Positions 866 through 59,446 are shown, counted from the stretch's first letter. The stretch is 64,000 bases of DNA from Okamejei kenojei (GCA_035221665.1 CM069141.1:30504001-30568000); one strand, 5' to 3'. Notes: a model not told the origin generated them from the letters alone. A program made the numbers and translations.

Positions 866-943
866 ACACAAAAAGCTGGAGAAACTCAGCGGGTGCAGCA
901 GCATCTAAGGAGCGAAGGAGATAGGTGACGTTTCGGGTCGAGG
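866..943 (-). mobile_element. Penelope-derived terminal-repeat fragment (half hammerhead motif)
   Basis: Matches the window-wide repeat acacaaaa-gctggag-aactcagcggg...taggtgacgtttcgggtcgag. Confidence 0.8.
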
Positions 944-3900
944 GTGTCTTGTTTCTGTTACCCTTTGACATGGATATGCTCTAACCTGGGTATATTTATA
1001 GCAAGGACATAACACTGGGGCAAATTCGCACTCAAAGTTAATTGCTTAATGGCTTCTATAGATATCAATTGAGTCATCAATTCTACCGAGTCCACAAGTT
1101 CACTGTAAGTTCTCCCGGCTGCATCATCACTGATGTAAGCTATGATGCAAATTGAAAATATCTACAATAGATGGTGACAGGACCCAATGCTGTATAAGCA
1201 AAGTCAAGCGTTCTGCTCAGTGGTGAGGGATGTTTACTGAAGATGGAAGATTTTGTTTAGCTTAGAATATATTTTGCAAGTTAAGCAAGTTTTTAGAGTA
1301 TCTGGCAGCCACTCTGCTGTGCACTGAAAACTGTGTAAGGGCTATTTTCTTAATTTTAAAAACTTAAACATTGCTTCTTGAATATTGTGGACTGCATTCC
1401 CTTTATTCTGCTAATATGTGAAGCTTCTGGGCATTCTATTAGCACAGTCATTCAATTCCTCATATAACATAACAGGGTGTCCCAGAGTTGCTATAGTTGA
1501 ACAAATGGAGAAAAAATAAAATGTAACCACAATTTCCAATCACCAGGCTTGTTAACAATTGCAACATGCTTAATATTTCTCGTAATACCTGAGATTAATA
1601 AGTTTATTTGCTTCAGATCATCATGCCATTTTCACATAAAATCATGATTTTTGCAGGGCATTCTTTGTTCTGCTAGAAATAAAGATTATGAGCACAAGAG
1701 ACATTTTTCACTTTTGCATCTCTTTATTTCCGGATAGATTTTAGCATCAGAAATGTGTAACTTCATCTACTGAAACTAAGCATTAGATTACGTGCATTTA
1801 AATTTTAGCTGGAAAGAATGTTTGTTGTATCACTCTGCAAACCTTTCACGCTTACAAGATTTATTTAGTGTGCCAGAGATGACTTTGTCCTAAATAATTA
1901 CTTCTGACTCAGTATGCAGAGATGTGCATCTATTTTGGTTAAAGATTTGTTGGCATAAATCTAAATTTAGTCATTCAAAAATGTGGTTTACTCTGACGAA
2001 TGACATAAAGTCATTCCGTTTGCACTTCTTACTTCAGCAATGTCAGGGGAAATTTAATACATTGTGAATTTTGCTAATATTTATTAAATGATTATGCTTT
2101 GATCCTCTAGTATGCCGGTCCAGCTGCAAAATTTCACTGACTTCTTGCTCTGTCGTTTTCGTTCTAGGTATTCAGAGCACTGTGCCTTTTTGTTCTTCGA
2201 AAAATCTTTTAATCAACAGTTTTGCAATTGCAGGGTGAATTCTGTTGATTCCATTCCAGAAGCGTTATGGATATCGTCATGATAATGTCATACTATAGTT
2301 TAGCCAACTGATAACCACCATTTGTTGCTTTTTCAAAATTCTCTAGTGAGTGGTAACTGTCTTCCAAAAGTCATAAAGATGAACTGCATCCAAAGTGTTG
2401 CAGTTTGAATAAATTTAGCACACACAATGCTAAAAGCCCTTTGTTTTTGTACTAACCTTGTGAAAGGACCATCCATTAAACTGCATTCTTCTCGTCTTCT
2501 CCTTGTAACTGTTCAATTTCTCATCTTGAAATATTCAACTTCCTTTTAATAGGTTGGACATTCAGTGGTGTTTACAGATTATATCCATGCGTTAATCATG
2601 AAGAAATTTGTAAACATGCATTGAATAGCAGAAGAGAAGAGATTTTTTTTTAATTGCAGTGAAGTATGACTCTAAGAAATAGGAGTTTACTGAACTTGAC
2701 CAGTCAACTTTGCATTAATCAACCTTTCAACACATATGAAAGGAATTTAATATTTTGCCTGGCATCTATTGAAGTTTTATTTGCCAGTCCTTTCATCAAA
2801 GAATTAATGGCTGGTTGCTGAAGAATTAGGTCAGTCTTTTGCATGGAATTTGACCCCTCTCAAAGTTAAGCTGGAACTTACCCTACTTTACTTGAAAATG
2901 GCTACTGCCAAAGTTCTCAGGAATCTAATGACAGCTTTGTTGTTAAATACGATACAACACATTTTCTGGATCAAAAGGGAGCTGTAAATTTATACAAGTG
3001 TGAGAAATGCCTGCAATAAAATCTTTTCATTATAATATATAAAGATTTGAAATTTGATATAAAATAACATGAAAATTCTCAATTGCTTTTTATTGTCAGA
3101 ACACTTTTTTTTAGCTTAAAAAGAAAAACAATGAACAATGAAAAACGGTGTGAACAATGGTTTATGCAGACCTCTTTCCAGCTCATTTTGCACCATCCAC
3201 ATTCAATTAGATCTGGGGGACACAAAAAATATTGCATAAATGGGAAATCTTATTCATCAACTGATCTGTGAAAATTAAAACTAAAGCCTGAGAATCTATA
3301 TGTAATTCAGTAATTTCATGGCTATCACAAATTGCAATGCAAGTTCCACTTTCGGGATTTGGACTAGTAGATTATCCCCCCAATAGATGAGCAGAGGTGA
3401 AGAAGGATTGTGTATTGAAAGAAGAGCAGGAAGGGAGAGGAATAGGAAGTGAGAGAGGTTAGAGAATAGTCTTTCTGAGAAATATGTCTGGGGGTGCTGA
3501 GAATTGGGAGGAGCAAGAAGTTGGCCAAACTGACTTGGATACTCTCAGTACAATCCTAGGCATGACCCACACTCTCCGTTGTACAAATATAATTTGACAT
3601 GTGATGTATGTTTTTTTAAAAGATTGTAGGATTGTAGATTTTTAAAACTAAAAGGCAGGATAAACAAAACCTTGAATGCATTTAGTCACGAGGATTTGCA
3701 AAAGAAGGAGAACGATTGCTGATGCGAATTTCTATCGTTATCGTACATTTCTTAAGTTATCAGTACTTTTCATAACGTCCACCATAAGAATTTCTGGGGA
3801 AATAAGTGCAGAATTAATCTGGATTCACTTGAGAACTGAAATTTTAGCTAGTGGTTTATTTACGGAATAGTCTTCATTGAACCATTTTCTGCAACCTCGG

Positions 3901-5390
3901 TTTGATGACCATCTTTGGGATTTAGTTTTAAATATCTACCTAGGAGATTTTAATGCCCTTGCCCATTTGCGTCTCCCTATAAAATGGAGGTTGGTCAAAA
4001 ACAAGTGCTCAACAGTGTCTGCATGTTTTCCACCCAGAAATCAGTACTAAAACATAACCTGCTTGGTTCCTGTTTGGGCATTTGAAGCCGTTGTTGAAGC
4101 TTTGCAGTGTAACAACCAACAAAGGGAATTGGCTGTTAAAGAGATTCCCCATGACAGCCAGAGAGCAGTATACACACTGTGACACAAAAAAGCAGGAAAG
4201 CAAGAAAATTCTATAATTTATACAGAGAGACATATAGATGCCCCTTACCAAGATACAAGCCAGAAGGGAAAGCTTTAGCACCAAATGTTCAGGAGATCAT
4301 CCGCCCCCATAAATTAAAAGCATAACAGGAGTGGCTCTATTGCCGCCTTCAGAATTAAAAATCTAGTCATAAAGGAACAGGGTACTAAGAAATGTAATTA
4401 GTTACAAATGAGTGAGCCCGAGAGTACTAAAAATGTTTTTTTTTTTCATTTTGATTCATGCCACACATTTGCAGTTTACTTTCATACACATCTTCATCTT
4501 GTACAGAGTCTGCACTAATTGCATATTGAGCTGGAGAATGGCAAAGGCAGCAGGGATCAGATCCCTCTGTGTTGGCCAACTCAGCAGGTTTGGAAGGAGA
4601 AATTAAGATCTTGTGGTCTGGGTGTCAGAGGGTTACGCACCATTGTCTAGGCAGACCCTGAGAGGCTCAGTATATTGATGTCCACCTTAATGGGGTCAGC
4701 AAGTTACCTCCCACCCAGACTGCTCCTTCCATTGGCACTGGGCAGCAGTCTGAAGCTAGTACATCTATAGCGAGAGCTGCTCATGGGTCACCTAACTGGT
4801 TTTGAAGGGAAAGGGAGCGGTCTTCCAGCAGCTTGACTGGGACATCAGCATTGTCATTACAACATTGAAACCCAGCTCGTTGGTCAGAAGATAACAGTGA
4901 TGAGGTGTTTACCTGGAAAAGTAATAGTAATAATCTCCAGACGATATGTTCTCTCATTTCATATTGTTATAAGTAATTTTCAATTACACATAACATTTAT
5001 CTTCAGACCATCTTTCAGTCATTTGGCACCTGCTGATATTCCTGTACATGACTGATGCTTCACTTGGTATGGATGGTGGCTGAAGATCACACTTGATTGC
5101 TGCCAACTGCTGAGGGAGGCTTCTTAGTTAAAAGGGATTGCCTCACTCCAGCACAATACTCAGTGGGGAATGAGTATGACCACTGCAATTAATTCAGTTC
5201 TTGCTTTGGAATTCTGTTTACCCTCAAAGGTTTTGAACGGTACACTTTGAGAGAGGGACTCCATGAGAGGCTAAAGGATCGAAGTAAGGTTGAATGATGA
5301 ACTTGACCAAATATCCTAGGCCAAAGATAGACACAAAATACTGGAGTAACTCAGCAGGTCAGGCAGCATCTCTGGAGAAAAGGAATAGGT

Positions 5391-5896
5391 TATAGGAAAG
5401 ATATTGTCAAGCTTGAAAGGGTTCAGAATTGATTTAAAAGGATGTTGCCAGGATTGGAGGGTGCGAGCTATGGGGAGAGGTTGAGTAGGCTGGGTCTCTA
5501 TTCCATGGAGCGTAGGAGGATGAGGGGAGATCTTATAGAAGTGTACAAAATCATGAGAGGAATAGATTGGGTAGATGCACAGAGTATTTTGGCCCAGAGT
5601 AGGGGAATCGAGGACAAGAGGTTCAAGGTGAAGGGGAAACGATTTAATAGGATTCAGAGGGGTAACTTTTTCAAGTTACAAGCTTGGGTGTATGGAACAA
5701 GCAGCCAGAGGAGATAGTTGAGACTGGGACTATCCCATCATTTAAGAAATAGTTGGACAGGTACATGGATAGGACAGGTTTGGAATGTTATGGACTAAGC
5801 GCAGGCAAGTGGGTCTAGGGTAGCTTGGACATTGTTGGCTGGTGTTGGCGAGTTAGGCCGAAGGGCCTGTTTCCACACTATATAACTCTATGACCC
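5391..5896 (+). mobile_element. CR1 LINE 3' fragment
   Basis: ORF 5442-5717 (MLPGLEGASYGERLSRLGLYSMERRRMRGDLIEVYKIMRG) is a CR1 ORF2 C-terminus. CR1 tail ggccgaagggcctgtttcc...ctctatgac. TAGGT duplicated at 5386-5390 and 5897-5901. Confidence 0.92.
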
Positions 5897-5935
5897 TAGG
5901 TGACATTTCAGGCTGAGACCCTTCATCAGACCCCT
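5897..5935 (-). ncRNA. Minimal hammerhead ribozyme motif (Penelope type)
   Basis: Reverse complement is GGGGU CUGAUGA A GGGUCUCAGCCU GAAA UGUC ACCUA. Core boxes are intact and GGU/ACC can form stem I. Confidence 0.6.
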
Positions 5936-6714
5936 GATATATCCTAGGCCATCTGTTTTCTAGAAACCTTAATTTCTGGGATGAAGAGTCACTTGAACAG
6001 GTGAGCTAGCATTAGATACAATAGATTCCTTGAGCAGGATATCATGAGAATAGAGTGATCACATTGAATTGGTATGAACAGAGTAAAGTTGCCCATTGCC
6101 CATTGTGTGTCTTGAACTGGGCTGTTGGTTGAATGCCTTCAACCTAATCTTATGACTTCACAAACTGGCAAGTCCAAATTTTGGTTTTGGTGTGATTTCA
6201 CCTGGAAACAATCCCCAGTGCAATTTACACTGAGTGATGCTTTTTGGCGATGTATAGATATTTTCAGCGATCGGTGGCCTTTTTGAAAATGTAGATTTCT
6301 GTTTATTTGAATGCATTAAAAAGTTGTATTTGAAAATGAATGAAAGTTCCTCAGTGCATGCAGATAACCTGTTTGCTTCAAGGAAATATTTTGTAAAGTA
6401 AATTGTGGAATTTTTGGTATGGTATCTCATCATGTTCTCATGGTATTTCAGGTGCTTTACAGCTCGTGATTACATGTTGCAATGCAGTCATTATTCTGTG
6501 AACCCTCAAAGCAGCCAAATGATCTATGGAAAGATCCCACTAATGGGAAAGCAAATTATTAAATGATGAGCAGCACACCTAGAAATGTCTCAGTTTTAGA
6601 CATCTGATAATTTATCATGCACCTGGCTCCCTACAGATTTGTGTATTGTAGAACAAGTATTGTATAAATACTTATAGACCTCTCCTCTGGGACCTTCAAT
6701 ACCAAGGTTCTGAA

Positions 6715-6780: not shown

Positions 6781-7406
6781 TAAAGTGAGGAGAAGATTGC
6801 ATGAAGATGAATGGTGATTGGAATAAGGGTACATGGACATGATTAGTGTGGCAAAGAGATGATGGGGTGGATTCAGGGGAGATGATTGAAGGAATAACAT
6901 TGGAGGGCTTATATTGGTGATGAGAGTGCCTGATAATATGCTTAGAATGGAGAGAATTTAATATAGATTTATGGGGAATGAACCAGAGGAAATGGCTTGG
7001 TCGGAACAATCCTTAAGGATGAAACTTCAAACTCCCAAGCAATATCACAGTTAGAGTGAGACTTACCACAAACATCAAACTAGGCCTCAATCATCTAAGA
7101 TTAGATCCTTACCACTCTGGAGTTTTGTAAAAAGATTGAATGTCATGGAGTTCATTCAGGTGTTGTACTCAATCGATGTCAATGCTCAGCCCAATGGGCT
7201 CCATAAGAGATATGCGGATGGAGGAACAAAATCGGCCATATTAATTGTTTTCTATTAATATTAATTTACATGGCATGGTGAAACATTGCAGCCAATCAAG
7301 AAAATGTCTGGGCCAAAATGTTTTGTTATTTATGGTTGAGAAGCAGAGGCACATTAGCCAGAACTGGCAGCTCGTGCTGTAGGAAGGAATTGGATTCTCT
7401 CAAGAT

Positions 7407-7504
7407 CAGTCTGAAGAAGGGACTTGACCCAAAACGTCACCGCTTCCTTCTTTCCAGAGATGTTGCCTGTCCCGCTGAGTTACTCCAACATTTTGTGTCT
7501 ACCC
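7407..7504 (+). mobile_element. Penelope-derived repeat with degenerate hammerhead motif
   Basis: ctgaagaagggacttgacccaaaacgtcacc...ttttgtgtctacc. TGGATTCTC repeated at 7391-7399 and 7505-7513. Confidence 0.85.
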
Positions 7505-13050: not shown

Positions 13051-14982
13051 ACTTGGAATCATAAAGTCTTACAGTACGGAACAAGGTTAATTGGCCCATC
13101 AAGACGGTGCTGATCATCAAACACTGATCTACCCTAATCCCTTTTTTCACTATCCCCTTATTCCCATCAACTCCCTCAGTGCGCCTGTTTCTGCATTACA
13201 AGATTCTCTACTTTTAATAAGGGGCAGGTGCCTGAAATTTAACCCTCCTACAATCGGTAACTTCCCCTAAAGTTTCATTGCAGACACACAACTAACATCT
13301 CAGCATTATTAGTGTCAAATCCCATCAACTACACATCGGCATCAAAGTAATTGTTGAGCTCAAAATGCCTCTACGACCTGATAATGTGACGTTAGAAGGT
13401 CCGTCATAACTGTACCACAGTAACTCTGTCTGGAACACATCAGATTAATTGTTCTCAACGTCAACAAAGTGCGGAAGTTCATGTAAATAATTCAGTGACA
13501 AAGACAGTAAGACAGGGGTCTTCCCTTTATGTGGGAAAATGATATTACTTCAAGGTCAGGTTTGATGAAGTACGTCATTCAGCTCTCTGTTGGTCACACA
13601 GATGTCTGAGGCTTTACAACATTCCAGACTACTTTAGCCAAGTTTTGGGCTAATTTATAACCATATAGCTTTATCTAATTTTCCAGTACAGCCATATTCA
13701 ACCATATTGCATATATCAAGCTAATTTCTGTTAAACAAAAAAAAAAGATAGGCAAGGGACTGGAAGAATTTTATTTTAACTAACTGACATGCCAGCATTT
13801 CCTATTTATAAGTGGAGTATTATATCCCTATCTTTAATAAAAATAATAAATCATTATTTTACATTACTGTGTTTTATAGTTTCCATCCAAGTAATGGAGG
13901 TTGTAAATTTTAACGTTAGTAAATGCTTAATTTTTATGGAGGCACACAGCTGCAAATCATTTTTTTCTACTAGCATATTTCCCAATCCAGTCAGCCACAA
14001 GAAGTAGTATGCTGCTTCATCTTCGCAGTTTGGAAATGACTAACCAAACCTCACAGCACTGATCTCTGTTGCTGCTATTAAAGATAATATTATGATTTAT
14101 TATTTAAATAAATGTCATTGTGCAGAGATTGAAAAGGTGCTGTGTTGGGTGGTATGGCATCCTGCCAGCTATTTTAAAATTTCCAAACATAATGTCACTT
14201 CATTTTATAATCGTGCTGGAAAAAAAATACCATCATGATTTCTATCTACAGTTTCTGAAACTTACCAAACCTATGTTCGTATATAAACTGTGACTTGCAA
14301 TGTCAGCAGGATTATTTTTGAAATATGTACTGGCGTCAAAATGCCTGGGTTGATGGGATCTTTATTTTAATATTTTAACATGCACTCCGTGAATGCCTTG
14401 ACTCTAATATTCAATGTCTCTTATTTTGCTTTGGAAATGGTGGCGCCTGCCTGTGTAATATATGCAAAGCGATTTTCACTGTGAAATTGCATATGTGACA
14501 AATAAAGCACTATTGAACAATATTTAGGATACAACCAGGTCCTACCTGGATTATAATGGACAGGGTTGCCTGGATTTCTATGACTGAATCTCCAAATGTT
14601 ACACATTAAGTCACCACAAAGACTCTCTTTGGTCCAGAGCTATAGGTTGAAGAGAATATAATTGTCATTCATATTCCAGTACAATCATTGAAATTTGAGG
14701 AACGTTGGCTCTGCAGTGTTGTTTACGAACACTGGACAGTTTCCCATTAGATCTTAACATGTTCATTTTGGCTTCCCAAACCCCTGGCAGCACCTGCATC
14801 AAAGATTATTTAAGGTTCAGCTATTATCTGGTGCATTTGTTCAAATATCACAGAAACATGAGATTTCCAACCATCTATCATAGCAATCTATCCACCATCT
14901 ACCCCATCTGCGGAAATGGCTGTGATTCCCACATTGGTACCAAATAATAAATAATCGTTGGTCACACGGGATTTCCTATGAT

Positions 14983-15045
14983 TGACACAAAATGCTGGAG
15001 TAACTCAGCAGGACGGGCAACATCTCTGGATAGAAGGATTGGGTG
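14983..15045 (-). mobile_element. Penelope-derived repeat fragment
   Basis: gacacaaaatgctggagtaactcagcagg...agaagga. Confidence 0.8.
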
Positions 15046-15169
15046 CATAGCAGCTTCCAGAAAACTGACAAGTGATAAATGAAGCATGATCAAGACTTTT
15101 TACCTTTTTCTTTCTTTCTCACCCCAGCCCTCAAACCATTGGAAAGGAGTAGCACTGGGTCACTGCACA

Positions 15170-15770
15170 GAGTCAAACAGCATTGAAACTTGCCCATCAG
15201 CGCTATTCATCCATGTGCTACTCATTCATCTAAGCTAGCCCCATTCACTAGTGTTTGGCCCATATCCCTCTGAGCTTTTCCTATCCATGTGCCTGTCCTA
15301 ATGTTTTTGCAGAGAAGGAATGGGTGACGTTTTAAACATCACCCCTTCTCTCCAGAGATGCTGCCTGTCCCGTTGAGTTACTCCAGCTTTTTGTGTCTAT
15401 CTTCGGTTTAAACCAGCATCTGCAGTTCCTTCCTACAAATGACTTTTCAATTATGTTATTTTACATGCCTCAACTACTTTCTCTGGCAATGCCCTCTATG
15501 TGAAAAAGTTGCTCCTCAGGATTCTATTACATTTTTCCCCTCTTACCTTAAATCTATGTACTTCTTGTTCTTGATTTCCCTACTCTGGGAAAAAGACTGT
15601 CCATTCGCTCTATCTGTTCCTTTCATGATTTAATTCAGCTATGTATAAGTTCACCCCTCAGCCTATTGCAATCCAAGGAAGAAAGTCCTAGCCTGCCCTA
15701 CGTATACCTGTAGTTCTGCCCCTCAGTTCCTGACAACATCCCCGTAAATCTTGTCTGCATTCATCTTGCA
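15170..15770 (-). mobile_element. CR1 3' fragment interrupted by a Penelope-derived insertion
   Basis: CR1 tail and ORF2-end motifs on the minus strand on both sides of 15310-15437. Confidence 0.7.
15310..15437 (+). mobile_element. Penelope-derived repeat with short 5' inverted arm
   Basis: agagaaggaatgggtgacgttt / aaacatcaccccttctct fold-back, then the canonical 3' end ...gcagttccttcctaca. Confidence 0.85.
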
Positions 15771-16045
15771 GTGAACAGCTTAAAAAAATTATTTTAGATA
15801 CAGATACACCAAGATACAGTATAATTCTAATGATCCACTACCCAATAGTTTAGAAATCATGATAGTTCGGCCTCTGTCTCACTGGGTGCTGATTCCAATG
15901 CTCTCTCTAATACACTGGGATCCCAATTCCTGTGCCCTCTTTAACATCACATGGGCCCCAGCTCCTGCTTTCCTTTAACTCCATGGAGCCTGGTTCCAGC
16001 ATTCCCTTTTTCAGACTTGATCTGAAACAGTCTGAGCAACAGTCT

Positions 16046-16132
16046 GAGTCTGAAGATGGGTCTTGACTCCAAACGTCACCCTCAAGAGATGCAGCCTGTC
16101 CCACCGAGTTATTCCAGCATATGTGTCTATCT
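16046..16132 (+). mobile_element. Penelope-derived repeat with degenerate hammerhead motif
   Basis: gtctgaagatgggtcttgactccaaacgtcacc... Confidence 0.8.
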
Positions 16133-16714
16133 TAGCGCGTGAAATGTTTGCTACAGAACTATTGACAATCCTGTACCGCATTTGGCAAGAGTAAATGATC
16201 TTTCTTAAGCTTATGGGTAGTGACTCAACACATAAATTACATCTTGACATATTAATGCCTTTGGAAGGGTTAGCCATAATCAAACTACAGTTAAAATCAA
16301 AGTGCTCCTATCACCCACCCACGCCTTATCCAACTGTTTATTTTTCCAATTCACGCAAAGAAATGACGACATTTTTGCTCTTCATCCACTCCCTAAATAA
16401 TGACTTTAAAATCAACAACATGCTTTTCTTGCTGTAGCCAAGAGCCGGGTGTAGTGCAGAAATTCACAGTCGTTGTGGCAGGGGTTAGTCTTTTTCAGGT
16501 CATCGAGGGAACAATCGGCATCAGCATTGAACAAACACTGATTAACGGACTGATAATCTGCTGATCATTATTTGATGAGAATTTATTTTTAATAAATTGA
16601 AAACCATTAAGATTCTGTTTAACCAGCGAGTGTGATATGCATTACCTGCCAGAGAGACCTGTGCGTGACAGCTAGTAAGATTGCATATGATCTGTTAGTA
16701 CAATTTAGATAGTT

Positions 16715-20980: not shown

Positions 20981-21062
20981 TTTTTCCTCTCTGTTCTGCA
21001 TTAGAAACTCCCTATTCTACCCTGGCTGAGAATAGAATGATACTATTTGCAATCTTCTTTAC

Positions 21063-21142
<80 letters not shown>

Positions 21143-40617: not shown

Positions 40618-40630
40618 GTCAGGGTCACCA
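40618..40630 (-). promoter_or_regulatory. Primer-binding site, tRNA-Trp-like
   Basis: TGGTGACCCTGAC differs by one base from the tRNA-Trp PBS start TGGTGACCCCGAC. Confidence 0.75.
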
Positions 40631-40957
40631 ATGTAGAGGCACAAAACATGGTGAACAAACGGGTTACTTTAATCAGGCACAATAGGTTCATTATACAAGC
40701 ACGTTGGTCTCTAACACAAAGTTGTTGTTGCTGCTGCGAGCCCCTGCTGAGGTGGAAGGACACTCACCCAAAGAGAGAAGAGAGCTGGTCAGCTCAAAGT
40801 CAGAGAGAGAGAGGGTTGTCCCGGGGTTCGTTATATATATCAGGACTCACCGCTATACCCCGTGACAACTCCTCCCTGCCATTGCCCAGTCACGTGACCC
40901 TACCCCCCGACTGCTGAGGGTTTGTGTAGCTAGTGGCCCAACCACAGTGCCGCCGCA

Positions 40958-41050
40958 GTAGACAAAAATGCTGGAGAAACTCAGCGGGTGAGGCAGCATC
41001 TATGGAGCGAAGGAATATTCCCGCTCACCTGCTGAGTTTCTCCATCATTC
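40958..41050 (-). mobile_element. Penelope-derived repeat, right part with short inverted arm
   Basis: Consensus match, then ctcacctgctgagtttctcca in the opposite orientation. Confidence 0.85.
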
Positions 41051-41854
41051 TGGACAATATTTTGAAACCTATGTGTTTATAACACACTGAAAATGTATTT
41101 CTTGCCATTGCACAAAAGCAAATTACCACAGATGTCAGAAATCTGAACTTAAATGTCCAATATTTTGTTTCTTTACTTGCTATCTTTGGCCATACACTGT
41201 CACCCTGATTATCAGGTAATTTATCTACATTCGAAAACTATTTCTAAGGTTTTTTTTCAGTGTGGAATAAGTGCCTCTCTGTCTCTGCTTCTCCCTGTCT
41301 GGCTCATAGATACCATATAACCTACACAATATTTCCAGCATTTTATGTTTTATCTATTTCCTATTGATATACAAGTAATGTTCCTTTACCAGTACACAGG
41401 ATTAAATTGCTCTCCCACTTCAAATTGTTATTTTTATCGCATAGTCAAAATCAATTGTTCTCTGTCAGATTTGTTTTTAAAATGCTCGGTAAGCAGGGAA
41501 TTAAGAATCACTGCACTCTGAAGCATGGGATCTGTTAATCTTGAGTACTTGACACATTTATGGTAATTTCATGAGAGGTTTGCCTTATATTGGAAAATAA
41601 ATTATGTTGTCTGTAATCTGCTTGACAAGATATTATTCTTTAATATGGTTTTGTTTAATTTAACAGTAATCAATGAATATGCACAATTTGTAGTTTGCTG
41701 CTTTCTTTAAGGAATGCTTTGAGAAAGTAATATTTTCTCATAGAGTTATTACTGAGTCGCTTTCTTAAAACACTTAAGCCATTCCAGTGAAGTAACTCCC
41801 GCAGTGGAGCTGAATCATGAGTTTGAGAATTTCAACCCAGCAATGTTGAAGGAC

Positions 41855-42130
41855 AGAAGATAGACACAAAAAGCTGGAGTAACTCAGCGGGACAGGCAGC
41901 ATCTCTGGAAAGAAGAAATGGGTGATGTTTCGGTTCGAGACCCTTCTTCAGACTCTTTGGGGATAAGGGAAACGAGATATAGTCGATGAAGTAGAGAGAT
42001 AAAGAACAATGAATGAAGGATATGCACAAAAAATAAAGATGATAAAGGAAACAGGACATTGTTTGCTGTTTGTGAGGTGAAAATGAAAAGCTAGTGCGAC
42101 TTGGGTGGGGGAGGGACAGAGAGAGAGGGA
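41855..42130 (-). mobile_element. Penelope-like 3' UTR plus terminal repeat with hammerhead motif
   Basis: Reverse complement of ~41919-41955 is GAGU CUGAAGA A GGGUCUCGAACC GAAA CAUC ACCC. The UTR resembles 54380-54560. Confidence 0.88.
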
Positions 42131-42284
42131 ATTGGGACCTATTTCCAAAGCAAAAGGATGTGCAACTTGAAGAGGGACTTGCAGGTGGTGGTGTTCCCAT
42201 TCACCTGTTGCCTTCATCCTTCTCAGTGGTATGGATTGTGGCTTTGGAGGTAGCCTACACGTGCAACTGCAGTGCTGCACATTT

Positions 42285-42443: not shown

Positions 42444-42569
42444 CATCTTGTTCCTAATTGTCACCTATCCATTCCCTTCACAGGTGCAGCCTGACCTGTT
42501 GAGTTAATCCAGCACTTTATGTTTCACTAATACAACGTTTATGTTGATACCCATTGAACTGGTTTTACC

Positions 42570-43821: not shown

Positions 43822-44672
43822 TTAGATTAGATTCAATTTTATTGTCATTGCACATTTACAGTACAACAAAATGGTTTAACCTTGCAGTCATAACATAGAA
43901 TAAAATAACAAAACACACACTCAACACAGTTCAACATCCACCACAGTGAGTCCACCAGGCACCTCCTCACTGTGATGGAAGGCAAAAGTCCCAAAGTCGG
44001 TGTTTCTTCCCTCCTTGCTCTCCCTCCGATGTTGTGACCCCGCGGGGGGTGATAAGCAAGTCCCGCGGCTGAATCCGAGCTCCACGAACGGGCCGGTTCA
44101 AACTCCGCAGCCCGGGGCGGTCAAAGCTACCAAGGCAGCTGCCCTCCAGTCCAGCGGACGAAGCTGTTGTTGCGGGAGCCTCGGAAAAACAGGTCACCAA
44201 CCTGTGACCTGCGAGCTCCCGACGATGCCGACAGACGAGTCCACTGAGCCCGCGGCCGAGCCTCCGAGGCTCCGAAGTCGGGCCGCCGCCGCCGGAATGC
44301 GCCAGAGCCCCGAAGTCGACCAGCTTCGCGATGGTAAAGTTACTCTGGGTAAAGTTGGCAGTAATCAATGATCATAAATTAGCCATATCTCTTGCACATT
44401 ACTGCCAATTTCCTGATATGGCTCTGCCTCCGGAGCCTCGAGATCGGTCCCAGTTGGAGGCCACCAGCTGCGCCATTAGGCCTCAGCGCAGACGGAGACG
44501 GGGGATACGACAGAAAAGGTCGCATCCCCACGAAGGAAGAGACCAAAAACATGTTACTCCCACACCCCCCCCCCAACACACACTCATACACAACCAAAAT
44601 GAACTAAAATAAACTGAAACGGGACAAAAAGAAAACAAAAAAGAAAAGACAAAACGGACCCAGCGCCACCAC
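43822..44672 (-). mobile_element. GC-rich non-coding retroposon with LINE-like (Rex1/L2-type) 3' tail
   Basis: Minus strand ends caatgacaataaaattgaatctaatctaa. CpG-rich body with hairpins. Shares motifs with 57243-57698. Confidence 0.7.
44342..44423 (+). repeat. 82-bp direct copy of local sequence 45406-45488
   Basis: One substitution and one 1-bp indel between the copies. Confidence 0.95.
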
Positions 44673-44847
44673 TGAGATAAAAAAAAGATAATTGGTATCC
44701 AACTAGAATTTTTTGTTGACTGTTGTTGCGCTATTGCATTTGCTTTTCTTGGTATATCAACCACGTTCTTTCCAAGTGAAGAGACTTGAGGTGAGGTGAG
44801 ATGAATATTGATTGAGTGAATTGATTGAACGATACAGTATGGAAACA
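44673..44847 (-). repeat. About 175-bp inverted copy of 46484-46655
   Basis: attggtatccaactagaattttttgttgactg...gatacagtatggaaaca is the reverse complement of 46484-46655 with few differences. Confidence 0.95.
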
Positions 44848-46046
44848 CTGTACTGTGTATATTACATTTTTTATAAGATAGTGGGTTTTATTTGTGCACC
44901 ATACACAATCTAATGATTTTTAATGGAATGCTGATTATTAAAATGGCATTTTCATTGTACCATTTTCCTTCTAAGAAGCAGAATTTTAACTTGTTTTACA
45001 TCAGCTATTTGATGATATTTTGCATATAATCAATCACCAAGCAATGATTCACAAATGATTTTGAAAAGTATATGCATAATATGTACCTTCTTCGATGAGA
45101 TATTCATTTGTTCTGTGTTCACTACAATGAACCAGTTGGTCAGGTACATTTCATCTGTAATATGCTAAAGACTTCAACACATTCCGTACAATCTGCACTG
45201 ATCTCACTGGGACCCCATTTGATTGTGGATAATTCAGATTTAAATTTGGTGCATGAAAGAGTGATCCTTGTTAAATTGTCTGAATAATTTCTTGCAAATG
45301 TTGCCAACTGTTGTTAAAGACTCCATTAGGTCATCAGCATCTGAGAAAATTTGCTTTCTTACAATCTGTCATCATATTATTTGTTACAATAGCTTATTGT
45401 GCATAACTCTGGGTAAAGTTAGCAGTAATCAATGATCATAAAATTAGCCATATCTCTTGCACATTACTGCCAATTTCCTGATATGGCTAATGTGGTATTG
45501 GCGGATAATTTACTAGCTCTGCTTGCTGGCTTAGTCTATAATTTAAGCAGAATGTGTGCTTAGCTGCATTTGAGATTTCCTGACCATATGTCCCGAATGA
45601 ATCTTTTACAGATGCCTTTTATATAAACTTTTTGGCTTAACAATTTTATTATGTTCTATTCCCTTCATTAAGGTTTGCTGTTCTGTGCAGTTTCCGATTT
45701 CATGAATAATCGGAATGGAGAAGTGCGTTTTTTATTCACACTTTTTATATTTACGGAAAGTGCAGCTTTCAAATTTGATCAAATCGCATAAGTTGTTGAG
45801 ATTAATTAGCTTTGATGATTGAAAACAGCTAAACACATCTGGTGTAAACAATAAAGCATAGGTTTGATCATGGGGTGCAACCTGAGGACAGTTGGGATAC
45901 TGGGGGAAAGGCTACAGCTTGAGACGTGATCCTTCGGCATGGTTAGGCCTCACTAAAGGTTTGATAGGGAGCTGCCCGGCAACCTATTGCTCTGGGGAGA
46001 ATGATCAAATAAGCTTGCACCAGTTGAAGGAAGGAGGCCTATACTT

Positions 46047-46092: not shown

Positions 46093-46302
46093 GGAACAAA
46101 ATTCAGTGATAAGGTTTGCATTGGATTAATGACCACTTTAACTACAGAGGTAGATGCCATTTATGGGAGTGGGTTCCCGCTCCAGCTACGGCATTCCTAA
46201 GCTTTTCAGAGTGGTATTTTCTTCCTGCCTCTTCTTTGTGAGGATCTAACAATGTTATGGACAGGACTGATCTGCTGTAAAGCATCACTCTATCTTTCTT
46301 TA

Positions 46303-46465
46303 GTAGAAACAAGGAATTGCAAATGCTGGTTAATACACAAAAGGACACAAAATATTGGAATGACTCAGCAGGTCAGGCAGCATCTCTGGAAAACATGGAT
46401 AGGTGATGTTCCGGGGTGGGAATCTTCTTTAGATAACTGAGTCTGAAGAAGGGTTTCTATCCAAA
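46303..46465. mobile_element. Penelope-derived repeat, head-to-head
   Basis: Minus-strand unit at 46303-46435, then plus-strand gtctgaagaagggtttc. Confidence 0.75.
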
Positions 46466-47469
46466 TGGGCAAACTAAGGGGCATGTTTCCATACTGTATC
46501 TTTCAATCAATTCAATCAATATTCATCTCACCTCAAGTCTCTTCACTTGGAAAGAACATGGTTGATGTACCAAGAAAAGCAAATGCAATAGCGCAACAAC
46601 AGTCAACAAAAAATTCTAGTTGGATACCAATGATCTAATTTTTTTATATATCTCATGAGCGAAAGCCAATTTGTCCTATTGAATTTATGCTCATTCTCAG
46701 AATATTTCCATCAGTGTGCCCATCAACTCCAATTTTTGTGCCACCTACCTAAACTAGACACAATCCGGAGCACCCAGTAAACCTATCAACATATCTTTGG
46801 GATATGGGATGAAATTGGAGCTTATGGTTGAATCTCACAAGAGCATGCAGACTCCACACAGGCAGCACCAGACGTCAGGACTGAACAAGGGCGACTGGAG
46901 GTGTGTGAAGGCAGAGCAAATGTGCCATTTGTTAATGTAGGTGACTGCACTATGCACTCTAGGTTAGTGCTCCTTTCAGTAGCACTATGAGTGGCACTTT
47001 CTCTTTCTAAACCACTTGTTGGGTGCAGCTATCACTGAGCAATGACCATGATATAGTGCATACAAATGGGTTAAGGAGTTGATAGCGATCCAGGTCCTCA
47101 TTTTGTAAACTTTATTGAAACATTCATCCTTTGACATATGATTTGTTTTCAACATTCCAACCAACATAAAATTATCTTATAATTTCTAAGTTGTTTCCAA
47201 ACTAAAATTCAGGTATACATATAATTGCCTGAATACGTAAATCAAGTACCAGAAAATTCTGAACCTGCCCCCTAGATTACACAGAGTCAGTGCTTCAGAG
47301 CACTGAAGATATACAACCAATGTTGTCTCCACAAACCTCTCCAGATCAATTGGCAGGTTAAATGAACATCAGTGTTCTCTCCCATGTCTCATTGGATCGC
47401 AGCAGATTAATCAGCTGAAGGAGGCGGTTGAAGCGCTGTACTACTTTGAGAGCTTTAAACTACCTTTAA

Positions 47470-47632: not shown

Positions 47633-48017
47633 CAAAACAGTACAACATCCCCAGCACTTTGGTACCTGTTAGATTCCATTACTTCTGTTGGATCTGCCAC
47701 GTCATATATGTACCCGACAACAGACCCTGTTGTTCACCTTATTCTGAGTTCATCAGAGCAAGAGATTAACAGGCAGATGGAGGAAAAACTTTCAAGATGT
47801 TTTTAAAGTTCACAACTTTCCCACTGACAAAGGGTCTCCAACCTGAAGCATTAACTCTGCTTCTCTTTCCACATAAGTTGCCCGACCTGCTAAGTCTTTC
47901 CAGCATTTTCTATTTTTTTATTTTTGCTTTGCAGCATATTAGTTTTTCTTACTTCCATCAACTGTTCCCTGACCTTGAACTATTCAGACTGAATGCCAGG
48001 GCACATGCACTAAACAA

Positions 48018-48322: not shown

Positions 48323-48489
48323 AGCTATTAGGAAAGTACATATGATATAAATGGTGTGATCAGCAGTGATGTGGGTTTCATTCCAGAGTTAATGGAACCC
48401 AGAAACTGTTATAATTGTTCATATTTCTCTGGTGCGCTAACATTATTTTGGTGAATAGGTTTTCTGGCCCATGTTAGAACCATGGATGT

Positions 48490-48585
48490 GCAGTAAGGAA
48501 CTGCAGATGCTGGTTTAAATTGAAGATAGACACAAAATGCTGGAGTAATCAGCAGGACAGGCAGCATCTCTGGAGAGAAGGAAAG
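48490..48585 (-). mobile_element. Penelope-derived repeat fragment
   Basis: aaggaactgcagatgctggttt...gcagcatctctggagaagga. GAACCATG on both flanks. Confidence 0.85.
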
Positions 48586-48619
48586 GAGGATTATGAACCA
48601 TGCATAATGCACACTGCAC

Positions 48620-48800: not shown

Positions 48801-48802
48801 TG

Positions 48803-49450
48803 TTCTGTAGTGCACCTGTAGAGATTTGTTAAGAGTATTTGGTGACATGCCAAATCTCTTCAGACTAAGGAAGTAGAGGGACTGGCATACCTTCTCCATG
48901 ATTACATCAATGTGCTGGGTCCTGGATAGGCCTTCCAAGTTAGTAAAGCCCAGGAAATTGAAGGTACACAAATGCTGGAGAAACTCAATGGGTGCAGCAG
49001 CATCAATGGAGCGAGGGAGATAGGCGACGTTTCAGGCCGAAACCCTTCTTCCTCCAGAGGGAGGTGCAGAACTTCTACAAAGTAGGCATACCTTGAGGAG
49101 ATTTTGCAGTGGAGTAGACAAAGTGTTAAAGAAGGAACTGCAGATGCTGGAAAATCGAGGGTACACAAAATGCTGGAGAAACTCAGCGGGTGCAGCAGCA
49201 TCTATGGAGCGAGGGAGATAGGCAACGTTTCAGTCGAAACCCTTCTTCCTAGTAAAGGCCAGGAAATCAATGATTATTTCCTTTTGTTTTGTTGATGTTG
49301 AGTGAGAGGTTGTTGTTGTGGTACCATGCAACCAGTTCTCTCCTGCAAGCTGACTCATCCTCACCTCTGCTGCAGCCAATGATCAAGGTGTCACTGGTGA
49401 ATTTGTATGTGACATCGGAGCTATGTTTAACCAAACAGTTATGGGTCTAC
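48803..49450 (-). mobile_element. Old Rex1 RT fragment hosting a Penelope insertion
   Basis: LSRTQHIDVIMEKVCQSLYFL and YKFTSDT-like motifs. Confidence 0.75.
48959..49249 (-). mobile_element. Penelope-like tandem pseudo-LTR insertion with 18-bp TSD
   Basis: Two direct copies of the terminal unit flank a short spacer. TAGTAAAG(C/G)CCAGGAAAT at 48941-48958 and 49250-49267. Confidence 0.9.
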
Positions 49451-49479
49451 TGAAATTAGTAGAACAGGGCGAAAATCTA

Positions 49480-49578
49480 AGACAGATACAAAAAAGCTGG
49501 AGTACAGGTCCGTACAGGTCAGGCAACATCTGTGGAGAAAAGGAATAGGTGACGTTTCGAGTCTAGACCCTTCTTCAG
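49480..49578 (-). mobile_element. Penelope-derived repeat fragment
   Basis: Consensus match, directly joined to a V-SINE head. Confidence 0.85.
49546..49578 (-). ncRNA. Minimal hammerhead ribozyme motif, best-preserved core
   Basis: Reverse complement is CUGAAGA A GGGUC UA GACUC GAAAC GUC ACCUA. All core nucleotides are present, but the 5' arm of stem I is lost. Confidence 0.65.
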
Positions 49579-49695: not shown

Positions 49696-51019
49696 CTAAT
49701 GATGCTCTGACGCCGACCTCAGAGGCTGAGATCACAGGGTTGTCAGGGGCTACGATGGCTTGTGATGTTGTGTCATGAAATGTAATCAGTACACCACAAA
49801 ACATGCACTGTTCCAGTTTTAATCCACATTGTTGAGGTAGACTCGACTTAGATAGCTTTAGAAATCTTTCTGTTGCTTCTGCAAAGACAACCGACAGTTT
49901 CCTGACTAACCGAGTCTTTTGCGTGATCTGAAAGATGACTCAATTGCAGAGGAAGGGATGGAAGGTGAAAATGAGAGGCAGTGTACAAGGTAGGTAGGAA
50001 TGGTTCCCGGTTTACACATACGTTGCTTGAAGTGTTGAAGCAGAGTTCAATGAAATACTGCTGGCATGATTCAATAAAAACAGGGCCAAAGCAAGCACAT
50101 ATGCAGGAAGCCATAATGCCTACTTAAACAAATATCACCAGAAAAATAAACTAATTTTGCACAAAATTTCTGATCATTGCTTTGCATTTGTTTATCTGAA
50201 TTTTTGATATCGACGCCCTAAAGTTTGACAATAAGCAATGCGTGGCTCTCGATTAAAATATTTATCAGCATGGATATATTTGTTGCTTAACTGTTTAACA
50301 ATCTTTCACACTGATTCAGACTGAAATATTCCCAAAAGTTCCCACATGTATATAATCTCAATCAAATTTTCAATCAAAATTCTGACCTAACACACTGCAA
50401 GTTGTTAAATACAATCACCTGGAACAACGAGGTATATATGAATTAACTGATCTCAGGGCGGGTCACAATTGACTAAGTTCCAATTGAGAGATGAGAAATG
50501 TAAGCTCGGCTTCCTTTTTTTGGTTGTTATCCTGAAAGAAATATTTAAAAATTGGACAGTACTGAAGATATCAGGTGATAGCAGGTTTGGGTTTAATTGA
50601 AGTACGTATTATTTCAATAAACTCCTGATAGTCACTGCCAAACCTCACAATGAGCTTAATGTAAGAGGTGCCAGATGGCAGGTAGCTTCTGTGGAACAAT
50701 ACTCAGGCACGAGGCAACACTTTAGAACAGGAAGGAAGTTAGAACAATAAACATTAGCCACTGAAGTTTGTATGGAGAGCTTCATTTATTTTTGCACAAT
50801 GGCTGCTGATTTTTGGTAAGAATTACATTGCTGGTGCACATTTCAGAATCAATTGTGCTTATTAGCAGCTGAGAAAATGCAATAGCAGGTGGTTTGCGTG
50901 TGGACAGTAAGCACACAAAAGTTGTCAGTTGGTTGATCGGATCTTGTCCAGTGCTGATACCAAAGTGGACCTCATCAACCCAGCCAACATACTGACGGAA
51001 CCACCTCTAGTACGCCTGT

Positions 51020-51118
51020 ATGTCTGAAAAGAGTTTGAATCTGAATCATTACCGATCTATGTTCTCCAGAGGTGATGCCTGACCCACTGAGTTACTCCAG
51101 CATGTTTGGTCCTTTTGT
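51020..51118 (+). mobile_element. Older Penelope-derived repeat
   Basis: gtctgaaaagag...ctccagag..gcctgacccactgagttactccagca. Confidence 0.65.
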
Positions 51119-54084: not shown

Positions 54085-54680
54085 GAAGGTTGAAGAAATT
54101 AGCGGGTCAGGCAGCATTTATGGACTCCTATATATCGGTGACACCAAGTGCAGTCTTGGCGATCATTTCGCTGAACACCTCTAGACGTACATAATCTCCC
54201 GGTTGCTAAAATCTCCCCATCCTATTCCTGTTCCCATACTGACCTTTCTATCCTGGGCCTCTTCCACTGTCAGAGTGAGGCCTAAAGCAAAGTGGAGGAA
54301 CAGCACCTCATATTTAGCTTGGGCAGCTTACACCTCAGCAGAATGAATATTGACCTCTAATTTCAAGTATCCCTTGCTTTCCCTCTCACTCTATCCATCC
54401 CCATCCTAGTTCTCCGACCAGTCTAACTGTTCTGATTAAATGTTATCTTTGTATTCCTCTTTGTTCATCTTCCCCTAGCTAACAATGATAATTTTCCTTG
54501 AGTTTTGTCATTTTCACACCTTGTCCTTCCATATCTCTGTGCGTCCCTCTCCCCAGATTCTTAGTCTGAAGAAGGGGTTTACCCGAAATATTACCCATTC
54601 GTTCTATCCAGAGATGAAGGGCCCACCAATACTTTGTGTATAGCGTAGGATTCCAGGATCTCGTTTCTTGTGTCTCTATT
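54085..54680 (+). mobile_element. Penelope-like element 3' fragment: GIY-YIG endonuclease remnant, 3' UTR and hammerhead motif
   Basis: From 54122 GLLYIGDTKCSLGDHFAEHL, then LPVAK..SHTDLSILGLFHCQSEA..VEEQHLIFSLGSLH..MNID. ctgaagaaggggtttacccgaaa at 54566. Short inverted terminal piece at 54085-54123. Confidence 0.9.
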
Positions 54681-55351: not shown

Positions 55352-55537
55352 TAAGGTAGACATAAAATGCTGGAATAACTCAACTTCATTGAATAATGCA
55401 GCATCTCTAGAGATAAGGGTTTCGACCCAAAACGTCACCCATTCCTTCTCTCCAGAGATGCGGCCTGTCCCACTGAGTTACTCCAACATTTTGTGTCAAC
55501 CTTTGATTTAAACCAGCATCTGCAGTTCTATCCTACA
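55352..55537. mobile_element. Penelope-derived inverted insertion
   Basis: Minus arm 55352-55412 joined to a plus arm that starts at stem II (aagggtttcgacccaaaacgtcacc). Confidence 0.85.
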
Positions 55538-55689
55538 GGTTTGACTCTACCTGTGTACCCATCAACCATGTAATTCACTGATTTCTTAATATCTTAGCCT
55601 CCCTCACTTCCCAACCAACTCCACCCTGAATCATCTGCAGCACATATATACCAGAGATAATTCACTTTGCCCAATTCACCCATCAGTTA

Positions 55690-56255
55690 AGGGCCTGTCC
55701 CACTTGGCCGTTATTTACGCGACAGGCCGGTCATGTCATCATGCGTCCACACAGCCATCTGGAGCGCGTGACGTCATTTGAAGATCGACACAAAATGCAG
55801 GAGTATCTCAGCAGGACCGGCAGCATCTCTGGAGAGAAGGAATGGATGATGTTTCGGGTCGAGACTCTTCTTCAGTCTGAAGAAGGGTCTCGACCCAAAA
55901 CTTCACTCATTGCTTCTCTTCAGAGATGCTGCCTGTCCCGTTGAGTTACTCCTGCAATTTGTGTCCATCTCCAATCGTCTTGTCCTCGCTCTGGGACAGG
56001 TTCAGCGATCGCTTGCCTGCTTCTGCCGCTGTTGGAGGTGAGACATTGCGGCGCGCCAGGGTGTCCCACTTGGCCATCATTTACGCGACAGGCCGGTGGG
56101 GTGTGAAAATTTTGTACAGAACGAAATCCTGGAGCGATACCGCGCGCAACTCCACACTCCCCCACGCCACCCTGTCCCACGCTACCCATACGCTACCCAC
56201 ACGCTACCACGTCGCATAAATGGCGCTTAAATGACGGCCAAGTGGGACAGGCCCT
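55690..56255. mobile_element. PIF/Harbinger-like MITE carrying a Penelope-derived palindrome
   Basis: TIR AGGGCCTGTCCCACTTGGCCGT at both ends. TTA TSD at 55687-55689 and 56256-56258. Internal TIR copy at ~56062. Confidence 0.88.
55780..55972. mobile_element. Head-to-head Penelope terminal repeats (two hammerhead motifs)
   Basis: ...gtttcgggtcgagactcttcttcag-t-ctgaagaagggtctcgacccaaaac..., with arms of about 95 bp. Confidence 0.9.
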
Positions 56256-58244: not shown

Positions 58245-58440
58245 GTTGTCCTGCCACATCCCAAACATATAGGTTTCAGTAAGTTGATTGTCCACTGTAA
58301 AATGTTCAGAATGTCTAGTTCAGTGATAGGATCTAGGCAGTTTTTCAGAAGTATGCGGGGAGAATAAAGTCAGATAAATTTAGGATAAGATTAAGTACAA
58401 ATTTGATGATCTGAGCTGAAGGGCCTCTTTCCGTGCTCTA
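58245..58440 (+). mobile_element. Old V-SINE 3' half
   Basis: ccacatcccaaacat...gagctgaagggcctctttccgtgctcta. Confidence 0.55.
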
Positions 58441-59339
58441 TGGCCACGTGAATTTCATCTGTCAAGCTTCCCATGGGAGTTCCAGCCGCCTTTACTACCA
58501 CAAGAAAATCAAACCCACTTTTAGTTGCAGGCACAAACACCAGACAATGGACCATATTGTAACCACTGCTGGCAGGTTTTAAAACATTCACTGGCCAACA
58601 CCCTAACTTATAACCTAGCTTCAAACTTTGGACATGGTGCCTTCATATAGCTGCTCTAATCTAGATATGATCTAACTAGGAGTAAACATTAAAGGTCCAA
58701 AATAGCATTTTAAGAAAAAAAGTAAATAAAAAATGGAAAGTAAAGTGTAAAATGTAGTTATTTACAAGGGAAAGAACAAAATTCCCATCCTTTTCTTTGC
58801 AAATGCTGTCATGAATGTAGGAATGTCCATAAACATGTTTCAAGGGTGAAACATTCACTAAGAGAAGCCAACCAAAATATAGTTACAGATGCTAAATGCT
58901 GATGGAGCAGAGGTGATACAGTAACTAAACAAGATTCAAGTACATTTGAAACACTGCAAACAACAGTAATGGAATGTTATAATACATTACTAACACTGTG
59001 AAATACAAGTCAGAGGAACTTGTGATTAATCTGAATAGTACACAGGGTCAGGCCAAACTTTGAGCACTGTTCATTTCTGCTTCCATAGCCTGAGGTGCTC
59101 ATTCAAGCATTGAATTCAATGCAGAACAAAGTCACAAGAATAATTCCTCATCTCACAGCACAAAGTAGGAGGCAGTCTGGAGAAAATTGAACTCTCACGA
59201 GCCAAACAACCCGAGAACTGATCTCAATGGTTTATAAGATGGATAATTAACAATTTGCAATCTTTTTGTGAACACACGATAACACCACTAGAATCTATAG
59301 CAATGACATCAATAATATGGCTACATCAGTGATACTTTC

Positions 59340-59446
59340 TTCCTGCCCCCACTCCCACATCAATCTGAAGAAGGGTCTTGACCAGAAACATCACCTATTC
59401 CTTCGCTCCATAGATGCTGCCTCACCCGCTGAGTTTCTCCAACATT
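59340..59446 (+). mobile_element. Penelope-derived repeat with hammerhead motif
   Basis: CTGAAGA A GGGTCTTGACCA GAAA CATC ACCTA at 59365. Confidence 0.85.

Follow-up and report, generated by a model that had tools for sequence, protein, structure and literature searches.

Penelope-like elements (PLEs) of metazoans contain minimal hammerhead ribozyme motifs with the published consensus CUGANGAH, helix II, GAAAN, palindrome and NUH (Cervera and de la Pena 2014, PMC4209133). In the portions of that study available to us, a nucleotide that separates positions 9 and 10.1 and a palindromic 15.2-16.2 segment are given as conserved features, and near-identical motifs of Culex, oyster and fugu (Suppl. 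Fig. S3) start with CUGAAGAA and have no helix III loop, the Culex motif forming a helix I of 2 bp. Most of these hammerheads are single and probably represent truncated PLEs, close pairs on opposite strands occur, and a test motif was not cleaved as a monomer and weakly cleaved as dimers and trimers (PMC4209133). Here we analyse a family of such motifs in a window of 64,000 nt from Okamejei kenojei (GCA_035221665.1 CM069141.1:30504001-30568000), the whole of which was examined and from whose first letter all positions are counted. We propose, with a probability of roughly 0.8, that the copies are the 3' ends, i.e. pieces of the pseudo-long terminal repeat (pLTR), of an autonomous Neptune-type Penelope-like retrotransposon and not a ribozyme-centred non-autonomous family.

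The family shares with the published minimal hammerheads the CUGANGA core, the extra base before G10.1, the G10.1-C11.1 pair, GAAA, a loop-less palindrome, NUH, a short helix I and a U-rich upstream flank; its helix II of 4 bp lies at the short end of the published range, and no chondrichthyan is among the motifs of Suppl. Fig. S3 (PMC4209133). An earlier note on this DNA had read the motif as a type I minimal hammerhead, which agrees with the published metazoan consensus. The extra A and the loop-less ACGU, taken there as marks of a distinct variant, are not new because these conserved features define the published class (PMC4209133). A specialist will not be surprised by the ribozyme finding, since the class has been known since 2014 and frog and coelacanth genomes each contain thousands of its motifs; one more lineage is now added.

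With respect to the insertions, the family resembles the endonuclease-bearing (EN+) Neptune PLEs in the C-terminal GIY-YIG domain and Cys linker (matched relatives), 5' truncation, an inverted 5' copy with a palindromic junction, a tail of 30-40 bp, target-site duplications (TSDs) and a partial tandem (Craig et al. 2021, PMC8557442; Arkhipova et al. 2013, PMC3846280). It differs in a pile-up of 5' ends at the hammerhead edge, which is not met in the accessible parts of these two papers. The enzyme PAc of anole Poseidon introduces nicks into both strands and begins reverse transcription at two internal sites, which define the tail; insertion in vitro does not require the anole pLTR hammerhead, which cuts in the presence of protein only (Frangieh et al. 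2024, PMC11167929, as far as accessible). However, anole Poseidon belongs to a different clade, and in the window family two-site priming is suggested by genomic ends only. Non-LTR retrozymes are likewise non-coding and pLTR-derived and have a type I hammerhead and many monomers (Li, Clavereau and Pollet 2026, bioRxiv 10.64898/2026.07.22.740005). In the available text of that preprint they are defined by tandem repeats with a complete hammerhead in consecutive units, whereas the only tandem of the window contains none and falls outside the definition.

The repeat family and its hammerhead motif

The window has a GC content of 40.6% and CpG at 0.36 of expectation, and LINE (long interspersed nuclear element) fragments are abundant across it. 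A degenerate 27-nt pattern with up to 3 mismatches matched 11 times in the window versus 0 times in 100 shuffles, and an iterated profile hidden Markov model (HMM) gave 35 matches at E<=0.05 versus 0 in 10 controls. An extended HMM produced 39 matches at E<=2, 36 of them at E<0.01, and 0 in the reversed window; the 3 weak matches were removed before later counts, and the 36 pieces kept were grouped by hand into 27 insertion loci, corresponding to one per 2.4 kb. Pieces with E<0.05 cover 3292 nt (5.1% of the window), and the hammerhead span from C3 to H17 is complete in 19 pieces (one per 3.4 kb). All seven places listed in the earlier note do contain the motif, on the minus strand at 5897-5935, 22877-22913, 41919-41955 and 49546-49578, on the plus strand at 34716-34750 and 59365-59400, and as two head-to-head copies at 55846-55910. 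Its figure of about 20 copies of a ~130-bp unit was right in that the family is real, with 19 hammerhead-spanning pieces; the length needs correction, as the unit measures ~95-100 nt and reaches ~135 nt only where an optional tail is present. The part of the element common to every copy is the 3' end, where reverse transcription starts, and not the ribozyme. Bacterial and archaeal genomes were scanned as well and gave 0 matches to the motif. Two weak tail-only fragments, at 39048-39083 (-; E 0.04) and 62940-62966 (+; E 0.049), stand outside the locus count. Subfamily B alone is resolved in a tree of 31 rows and 61 columns, from which 5 of the 36 pieces were excluded as too short and in which 3 of 28 branches are well supported; group A and an older group were delimited with a simple rule based on diagnostic columns.

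The majority sequence reads AGU, CUGAAGA, A, GGGU-CUCG-ACCC, GAAA, CG, UC and ACC. In every scored core column (C3-U4-G5-A6-N7-G8-A9, G12-A13-A14-A15.1 and U16.1-H17) the majority base fits the metazoan PLE minimal hammerhead, and 18 of the 19 copies have A as the extra nucleotide between 9 and 10.1, while one has T. Helix II is paired in 82.7% of the cells over 4 pairs and 19 copies; its closing pair G10.1-C11.1 is G-C in 11/19 and G-U in 5/19, and the loop-closing pair displays a one-sided U-A/U-G change. This helix is better drawn with 4 bp and a CUCG or UUCG loop, an alternative of 5 bp with a 2-nt loop having been rejected on established steric grounds. The consensus helix I amounts to 2 bp, the two pairs being formed in 15 and 14 of 19 copies. 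Helix III has the palindromic, loop-less majority sequence ACGU, whose central CpG has decayed in most copies (CG intact in 7/19). Decay is widespread in general: CpG columns are changed in 35% of the cases (82/234) and G12 in 12 of 29 pieces. Of the 19 copies, 7 retain all 11 scored core bases, 3 the full core plus all four helix II pairs and 0 the full consensus fold, and no two intact copies are adjacent. The scattered inserted copies are probably inactive.

Parent element and insertion anatomy

The longest copy carries the motif behind coding sequence. A broken C-terminal Neptune-type GIY-YIG endonuclease with frameshift and stops at 54122-54357 (+), aligning in two frames, matched 29 proteins in an exhaustive protein search (phmmer, best E 2.3e-10, 64% identity) and was also recovered by tblastn; in a word-indexed search with the same remnant 0 of 24 candidates passed. 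It is preceded by a short inverted pLTR arm, the 5' end of this copy (54089-54124, -; HMM match), and followed by a pyrimidine-rich 3' untranslated region (UTR) extending from the endonuclease to the hammerhead (54360-54562, +; by composition) and by the hammerhead with the 3' part and tail (54563-54677, +; C3 at 54566, full core, 3-bp helix II and AUAU palindrome, by core scoring and descriptor). A GIY-YIG domain was weakly recognised by Pfam in 2 of the 29 first matches and annotated in 6 of 120 among the relatives listed; Pfam gave 0 matches for three short remnant pieces of the window. One of the 29 proteins (P0026), a gene model of the stingray Hypanus sabinus, comprises reverse transcriptase (RT) motifs, thumb and a Cys-rich linker, and its relatives include models of Mobula, Rhincodon, Stegostoma, Chiloscyllium and Leucoraja as well as coral proteins with RT, thumb and GIY-YIG domains. 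The Cys-rich linker between RT and endonuclease was found in 5 of 5 relatives inspected; the corresponding region is absent from the window. Such a linker is described as a mark of Neptune and Nematis PLEs (PMC8557442, in the part available). Membership in the Neptune clade is likely, the clade being read from the relatives and not from a tree because RT and linker are absent from the window.

A zebra shark gene model (P0039), one of 148 proteins scanned, continues from the endonuclease through a low-complexity UTR stretch into SLMKGLRPKR, and window copies in the matching frame read SLKKGLEPKH, SLKKGFGPKC and GLMKGLSLKC. The motif therefore lies behind an autonomous-type endonuclease in another elasmobranch too. 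Together with the 29 protein matches and tblastn, this read-through upholds the Penelope link which the earlier note had drawn from a GIY-YIG remnant upstream of the motif. A search of the 148 proteins for an open reading frame (ORF) start or the tandem spacer described below gave nothing. Three gene models (P0003, P0032 and P0034) fuse a host protein to Penelope RT or endonuclease sequence and are probably due to annotation read-through or exonised fragments.

The published PLE signatures 5' truncation, inverted pairs, one-arm tail and TSDs are all present in the copies (PMC8557442, PMC3846280, as available). The tail adds ~35-40 nt and is found on 10 of the 32 arms reaching the 3' part. Head-to-head inverted pairs occupy 7 of the 27 loci, with the tail on exactly one arm in 5/7 and on both in 0/7, and are mostly joined at self-complementary spots (TCAGTCTGA head, helix II, GAAA/ACGU region). 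A TSD score of at least 8 was obtained at 8 of 28 loci versus 7.0% of mismatched flank pairs; after boundary refinement the counts are 9/27 (at least 8) and 11/27 (at least 7), which are partly circular because the boundaries drew partly on the first TSD scan. Lengths of 7-19 bp agree with those given before, whereas TSDs accompany 9-11 of 27 loci and not most insertions as formerly stated. Two TSD candidates, at 41853 and 49473, were rejected as their score of 7 is within the null. Each of the two 3' end classes is preceded by one occurrence of the heptamer CCAGCAT (unit columns ~81-87 and 110-116; e.g. 21554-21676, +), which can pair with an upstream GATGCTG; it is a candidate protein-binding or priming signal, and a 7-mer repeat within 135 nt is not significant alone.

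A partial head-to-tail tandem exists at 1 of the 27 loci (48959-49251, -; 18-bp TSD with one mismatch), its period of ~198 nt consisting of unit, tail, 70-nt spacer and unit. Both units share private changes and have no C3/U4. This demonstrates the copying of a short two-unit template, for which no working hammerhead was needed. Arrays of the unit were not found in the window. The 198-nt period is open for one full turn (ORF 48902-49201), probably by chance, and the 70-nt spacer has no second copy in the window.

The 5' ends of the copies were assigned by hand, very short copies escaping detection and tracts being recognised by composition, not homology. On this basis, the start lies 6-35 nt within the motif at 8 of 27 loci and between -11 and +5 relative to C3 at 13, and 6 extend upstream into a pyrimidine tract. 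Starts within 3 nt of the cleavage site occur at 2/27 loci, for which reason self-cleavage was rejected as the maker of the 5' ends. Each of subfamily A, subfamily B and the older group has a copy with an upstream pyrimidine tract; a pyrimidine content of at least 0.70 is reached in 4% of random 40-mers. At the hammerhead edge, the initiator consensus YYANWYY is approximated in 5 of 10 heads inspected, and the consensus YAG follows the pyrimidine tract in 5/10. Transcription in D. virilis begins within the pLTR, and helix I is the site at which an intron has its end (PMC2377424, PMC4209133, as far as available). Three TSD-bounded copies starting at the head have GG instead of AG before TCTGA (5938-5929, -; 26081-26078, -; 34716-34719, +), which could be a copied cap G or complete the third helix I pair.

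Proposed origin of the copies and rival explanations

We propose the following scenario. The parent element would have been active in several subfamily waves; its anatomy is seen at the locus 54089-54677, with a GIY-YIG endonuclease, a pyrimidine-rich UTR, a minimal type I hammerhead, ~60 nt of conserved 3' sequence and an optional tail. Its protein might, in analogy to the anole enzyme, nick genomic DNA and initiate reverse transcription internally on the RNA, at either of two sites ~35-40 nt apart, and ends with or without tail would therefore result. Synthesis would usually stop early and leave short copies, while priming off both strands may generate the head-to-head pairs; the hammerhead would be carried along owing to its distance of 60-100 nt to the start site. 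In the parent RNA, the hammerhead probably cleaves slowly after GUC, either as a dimer via the ACGU palindrome or with the element protein, as judged by analogy. The previous expectation that a partner or protein must assist is consistent with the accessible parts of PMC4209133 and PMC11167929. Once inserted, the copies show neutral-looking decay.

The crowding of 5' ends at the hammerhead edge could arise from transcript run-off, a splice boundary, enzyme stalling or a short master element. We tentatively prefer as cause a run-off of many cDNAs at a transcript 5' end coinciding with the hammerhead front edge, even if this remains somewhat short of an even chance. Rather unlikely, in our estimate, is the more specific version in which the short copies result from run-off within the 5' pLTR on the mRNA of the autonomous element itself; transcription would start at the initiator-like TCAGTCT overlapping helix I, and priming would occur internally 95-135 nt downstream. 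If this were true, the positions of the PLE start site and the two priming sites would be preserved as a fossil map in the thousands of genomic copies, the uncut RNA would be the template in vivo, and the 198-nt tandem would represent a short template on its way to becoming a retrozyme and already without catalysis. At ~1 locus per 2.4 kb, insertions whose ends can be mapped should be very numerous in such a genome and could be used in vivo to probe the two-site priming model, the origin of the inverted pLTR and the role of hammerhead cleavage in Penelope transposition. The literature searched, which lacked most subscription papers, contained no account of the motif in elasmobranchs or of the pile-up at the 5' edge.

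Several results weigh against an origin of the copies as 3' ends of an autonomous PLE with a catalytic hammerhead. Motif and coding sequence are linked at only one locus of the window (54089-54677), and tblastn of the 148 proteins revealed no RT remnant of the family there. The pyrimidine tracts are not demonstrably homologous (best pair 8/300 shuffles, the other 14 pairs at least 11/300), and the UTR label for them rests for this reason on composition and one enclosing TSD. Steady truncation predicts 18% of ends in the 17-nt edge interval and 13/19 were seen (P about 2e-6); when ends fixed by a TSD or inversion junction only are taken, 9/15 lie in this interval (P about 4e-4). Such an accumulation, comprising 13 of the 27 loci, would also be produced by a short master element, and the 198-nt partial tandem, whose units have private changes in common, looks like the copy of a short template. 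Both features would suit a unit that is a non-autonomous retroposon of its own, SINE-like (short interspersed nuclear element) or retrozyme-like, with short masters beginning at the hammerhead and PLE protein supplied in trans; PLE-derived non-LTR retrozymes with many monomers are indeed described in vertebrates including one chondrichthyan (bioRxiv 10.64898/2026.07.22.740005, available part). However, we judge this origin to be improbable. Copies starting at the head occur beside tract-extended ones in every subfamily, so that several parallel short masters would be needed. Moreover, arrays are missing, the tandem units have neither C3 nor U4, ribozyme-made RNA would start near the cleavage site, yet 2/27 loci do, and hammerhead mutants tested with the anole enzyme left insertion in vitro unaffected (PMC11167929, as accessible). 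The ribozyme-centred non-autonomous retroposon put forward in the earlier note is thus at best a weak proposition, given the 5'-truncated PLE anatomy, the rarity of starts at the cleavage site and the state of the only tandem.

Catalysis in the parent RNA has to be weighed separately. Helix II covariation is no stronger than in shuffles (155/500 reach the score), 19 decaying copies providing little power. In folding predictions of monomer and dimer the hammerhead fold is not the minimum, and a competing hairpin between the purine-rich core region and pyrimidines 3' of the cleavage site is favoured; this hairpin is weak evidence because folding programs do not model the hammerhead core. The covariance-model check suggested in the earlier note gave no hammerhead among the 13 Rfam matches in the window up to E=5; Rfam hammerhead models presumably need a real helix III, and matches to microRNA families were rejected as they are located on hairpins formed by inverted repeats. 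Non-CpG core columns are changed in 7.0% (17/244) and the 3' part in 14.1% (233/1649; base-matched rate 15.6%, P=0.001 versus core), but without columns having a frequent second base the 3' part falls to 9.3% (118/1270) and the conservation of the core is not significant (P=0.093). We read these rates as conservation of the core in the parents while subfamilies diverged elsewhere, the inserted copies decaying neutrally. The sequestered core and the lacking covariation, together with a consensus helix I of 2 bp whose third pair is formed in 4/19 copies, would fit a motif without cleavage activity even in the parent RNA, being a relic or serving only to bind protein, and published minimal hammerheads cleave weakly or only with protein (PMC4209133, PMC11167929, available parts). 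We consider this unlikely, since the core was spared from the subfamily changes, the zebra-shark element has the motif in the same position, and a helix I of two pairs is likewise present in published members from Culex and D. virilis (PMC4209133, in part).

It is also conceivable that scattered copies are active ribozymes retained by the host to cut its own transcripts. A descriptor comprising core, palindrome and 2 bp of helix I passes at 3 sites (C3 at 5929, 22909 and 54566) versus a mean of 0.02 in 200 Markov controls, and domesticated intronic hammerheads exist in amniotes (PMC6155905, as far as available). Yet ACGU is altered in all 3 passing copies, and the closest same-strand full-core copies (54566 and 59365), both damaged elsewhere, are 4.8 kb apart. 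Inverted pairs place motifs on opposite strands, no strand bias is visible (9 on +, 10 on -), and CpG decay strikes G12 freely, which renders host retention highly improbable.

Individual copies and neighbouring features

Copies from the hammerhead edge lie at 7400-7504 (+; G12 mutated, without tail, 9-bp TSD), 32243-32380 (+; old, tailed, 17-bp TSD with one mismatch), 34709-34802 (+; A15.1 mutated, internal deletion of 10 nt, 11-bp TSD with one mismatch) and 51021-51118 (+; old, damaged core by core scoring). The copy at 49473-49578 (-) starts from C3 and has a full core and ACGU but no helix I (core scoring, folding), the old copy at 47820-47915 (+) starts from about C3 (HMM match, core scoring), and that at 25952-26081 (-; tailed, G12 mutated, 7-bp TSD) begins 3 nt before C3. 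Starts near the cleavage site at 14978-15045 (-; without tail; HMM match, end scoring) and just past it at 48487-48594 (-; tailed, 8-bp TSD) were also found, as were truncations inside helix II at 856-942 (-; PLE end copy without tail; HMM match, end-class scoring) and 30212-30295 (-; HMM match). A truncated old copy is present at 42447-42529 (+; HMM match), and upstream of the copy at 16005-16135 (+; G12 mutated) are short duplications of the head and a short head fragment in inverted orientation.

Upstream pyrimidine tracts are found with a diverged old copy at 19720-19848 (+; HMM match, composition), with an old, tailed copy of damaged core at 20521-20700 (-; HMM match, core scoring) and, over ~95 nt, with a subfamily B copy at 22817-23006 (-), which has a full core with C3 at 22909, a UUCG loop and a 2-bp helix I and whose 14-bp TSD (one mismatch) encloses the tract. 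A subfamily A copy at 41853-42135 (-) is preceded by ~180 nt and a subfamily B copy at 59330-59461 (+) by a short tract; both have a full core and damaged helices II and III (core scoring, composition). The inverted pair at 15309-15437 is joined head-to-head at the GAAA/ACGU palindrome and tailed on the + arm (HMM match), and that at 21485-21674 is joined head-to-head within helix II, tailed only on the + arm and flanked by a TSD of 16 exact bp (19 with one mismatch). A short head-to-head pair at 40959-41056 has no hammerhead core (HMM match), the pair at 46299-46492 has its junction at the hammerhead 5' edge, a tail only on the - arm and a 12-bp TSD with one mismatch, and the pair at 55352-55539 has a tail only on the + arm (HMM match, end-class scoring). 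At 55776-55974 a symmetric head-to-head pair is formed via the near-palindromic TCAGTCTGA head and carries hammerheads on both strands (HMM match, core scoring).

One copy has been split just past the hammerhead by a later LINE fragment (~5393-5896) into a 3' half at 5324-5392 (-) and a hammerhead half at 5897-5938 (-), the latter with a full core, C3 at 5929, a 4-bp helix I and helix III now AUGU (core scoring); a 13-bp TSD (5311-5323 / 5939-5951) surrounds both halves. Conversely, a Penelope inverted pair is inserted inside the LINE-like sequence 15165-15700. As nesting runs in both directions, LINE and Penelope activity overlapped in time; the sequences 5393-5896 and 15165-15700 are presumed LINE members by family resemblance. 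A fairly intact, frameshifted LINE with Pfam matches to apurinic/apyrimidinic (AP) endonuclease and RT occupies 27797-29880 (-), and related fragments lie near 16841, 33904 and 48865. A 286-aa open frame at 37742-38602 (+), without Pfam match, resembles the C-terminal part of a CR1-type RT, and other repeats of the window resemble tails of shark SINEs and LINEs.

A search for host genes, in which 300 of 544 unmasked ORFs were compared with Pfam, yielded 4 weak matches below cut-off and no confirmed host exon; the Aph-1 and zinc-ribbon matches were not confirmed on follow-up. The open frame at 49739-49927 (-) follows a good splice acceptor, contains CxxC and matches a zinc-ribbon weakly (Pfam, E 0.002); no homologue was found, and it is a possible host exon. 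CpG-rich and GC-rich stretches at 39001-41000 and 44001-45000 (observed/expected 0.61-0.89) may represent young repeats or a CpG island. Finally, the inverted repeat at 20981-21224 looks perfect and has a long stretch of TA in the middle; it is possibly a small foldback element or one resembling a miniature inverted-repeat transposable element (MITE).

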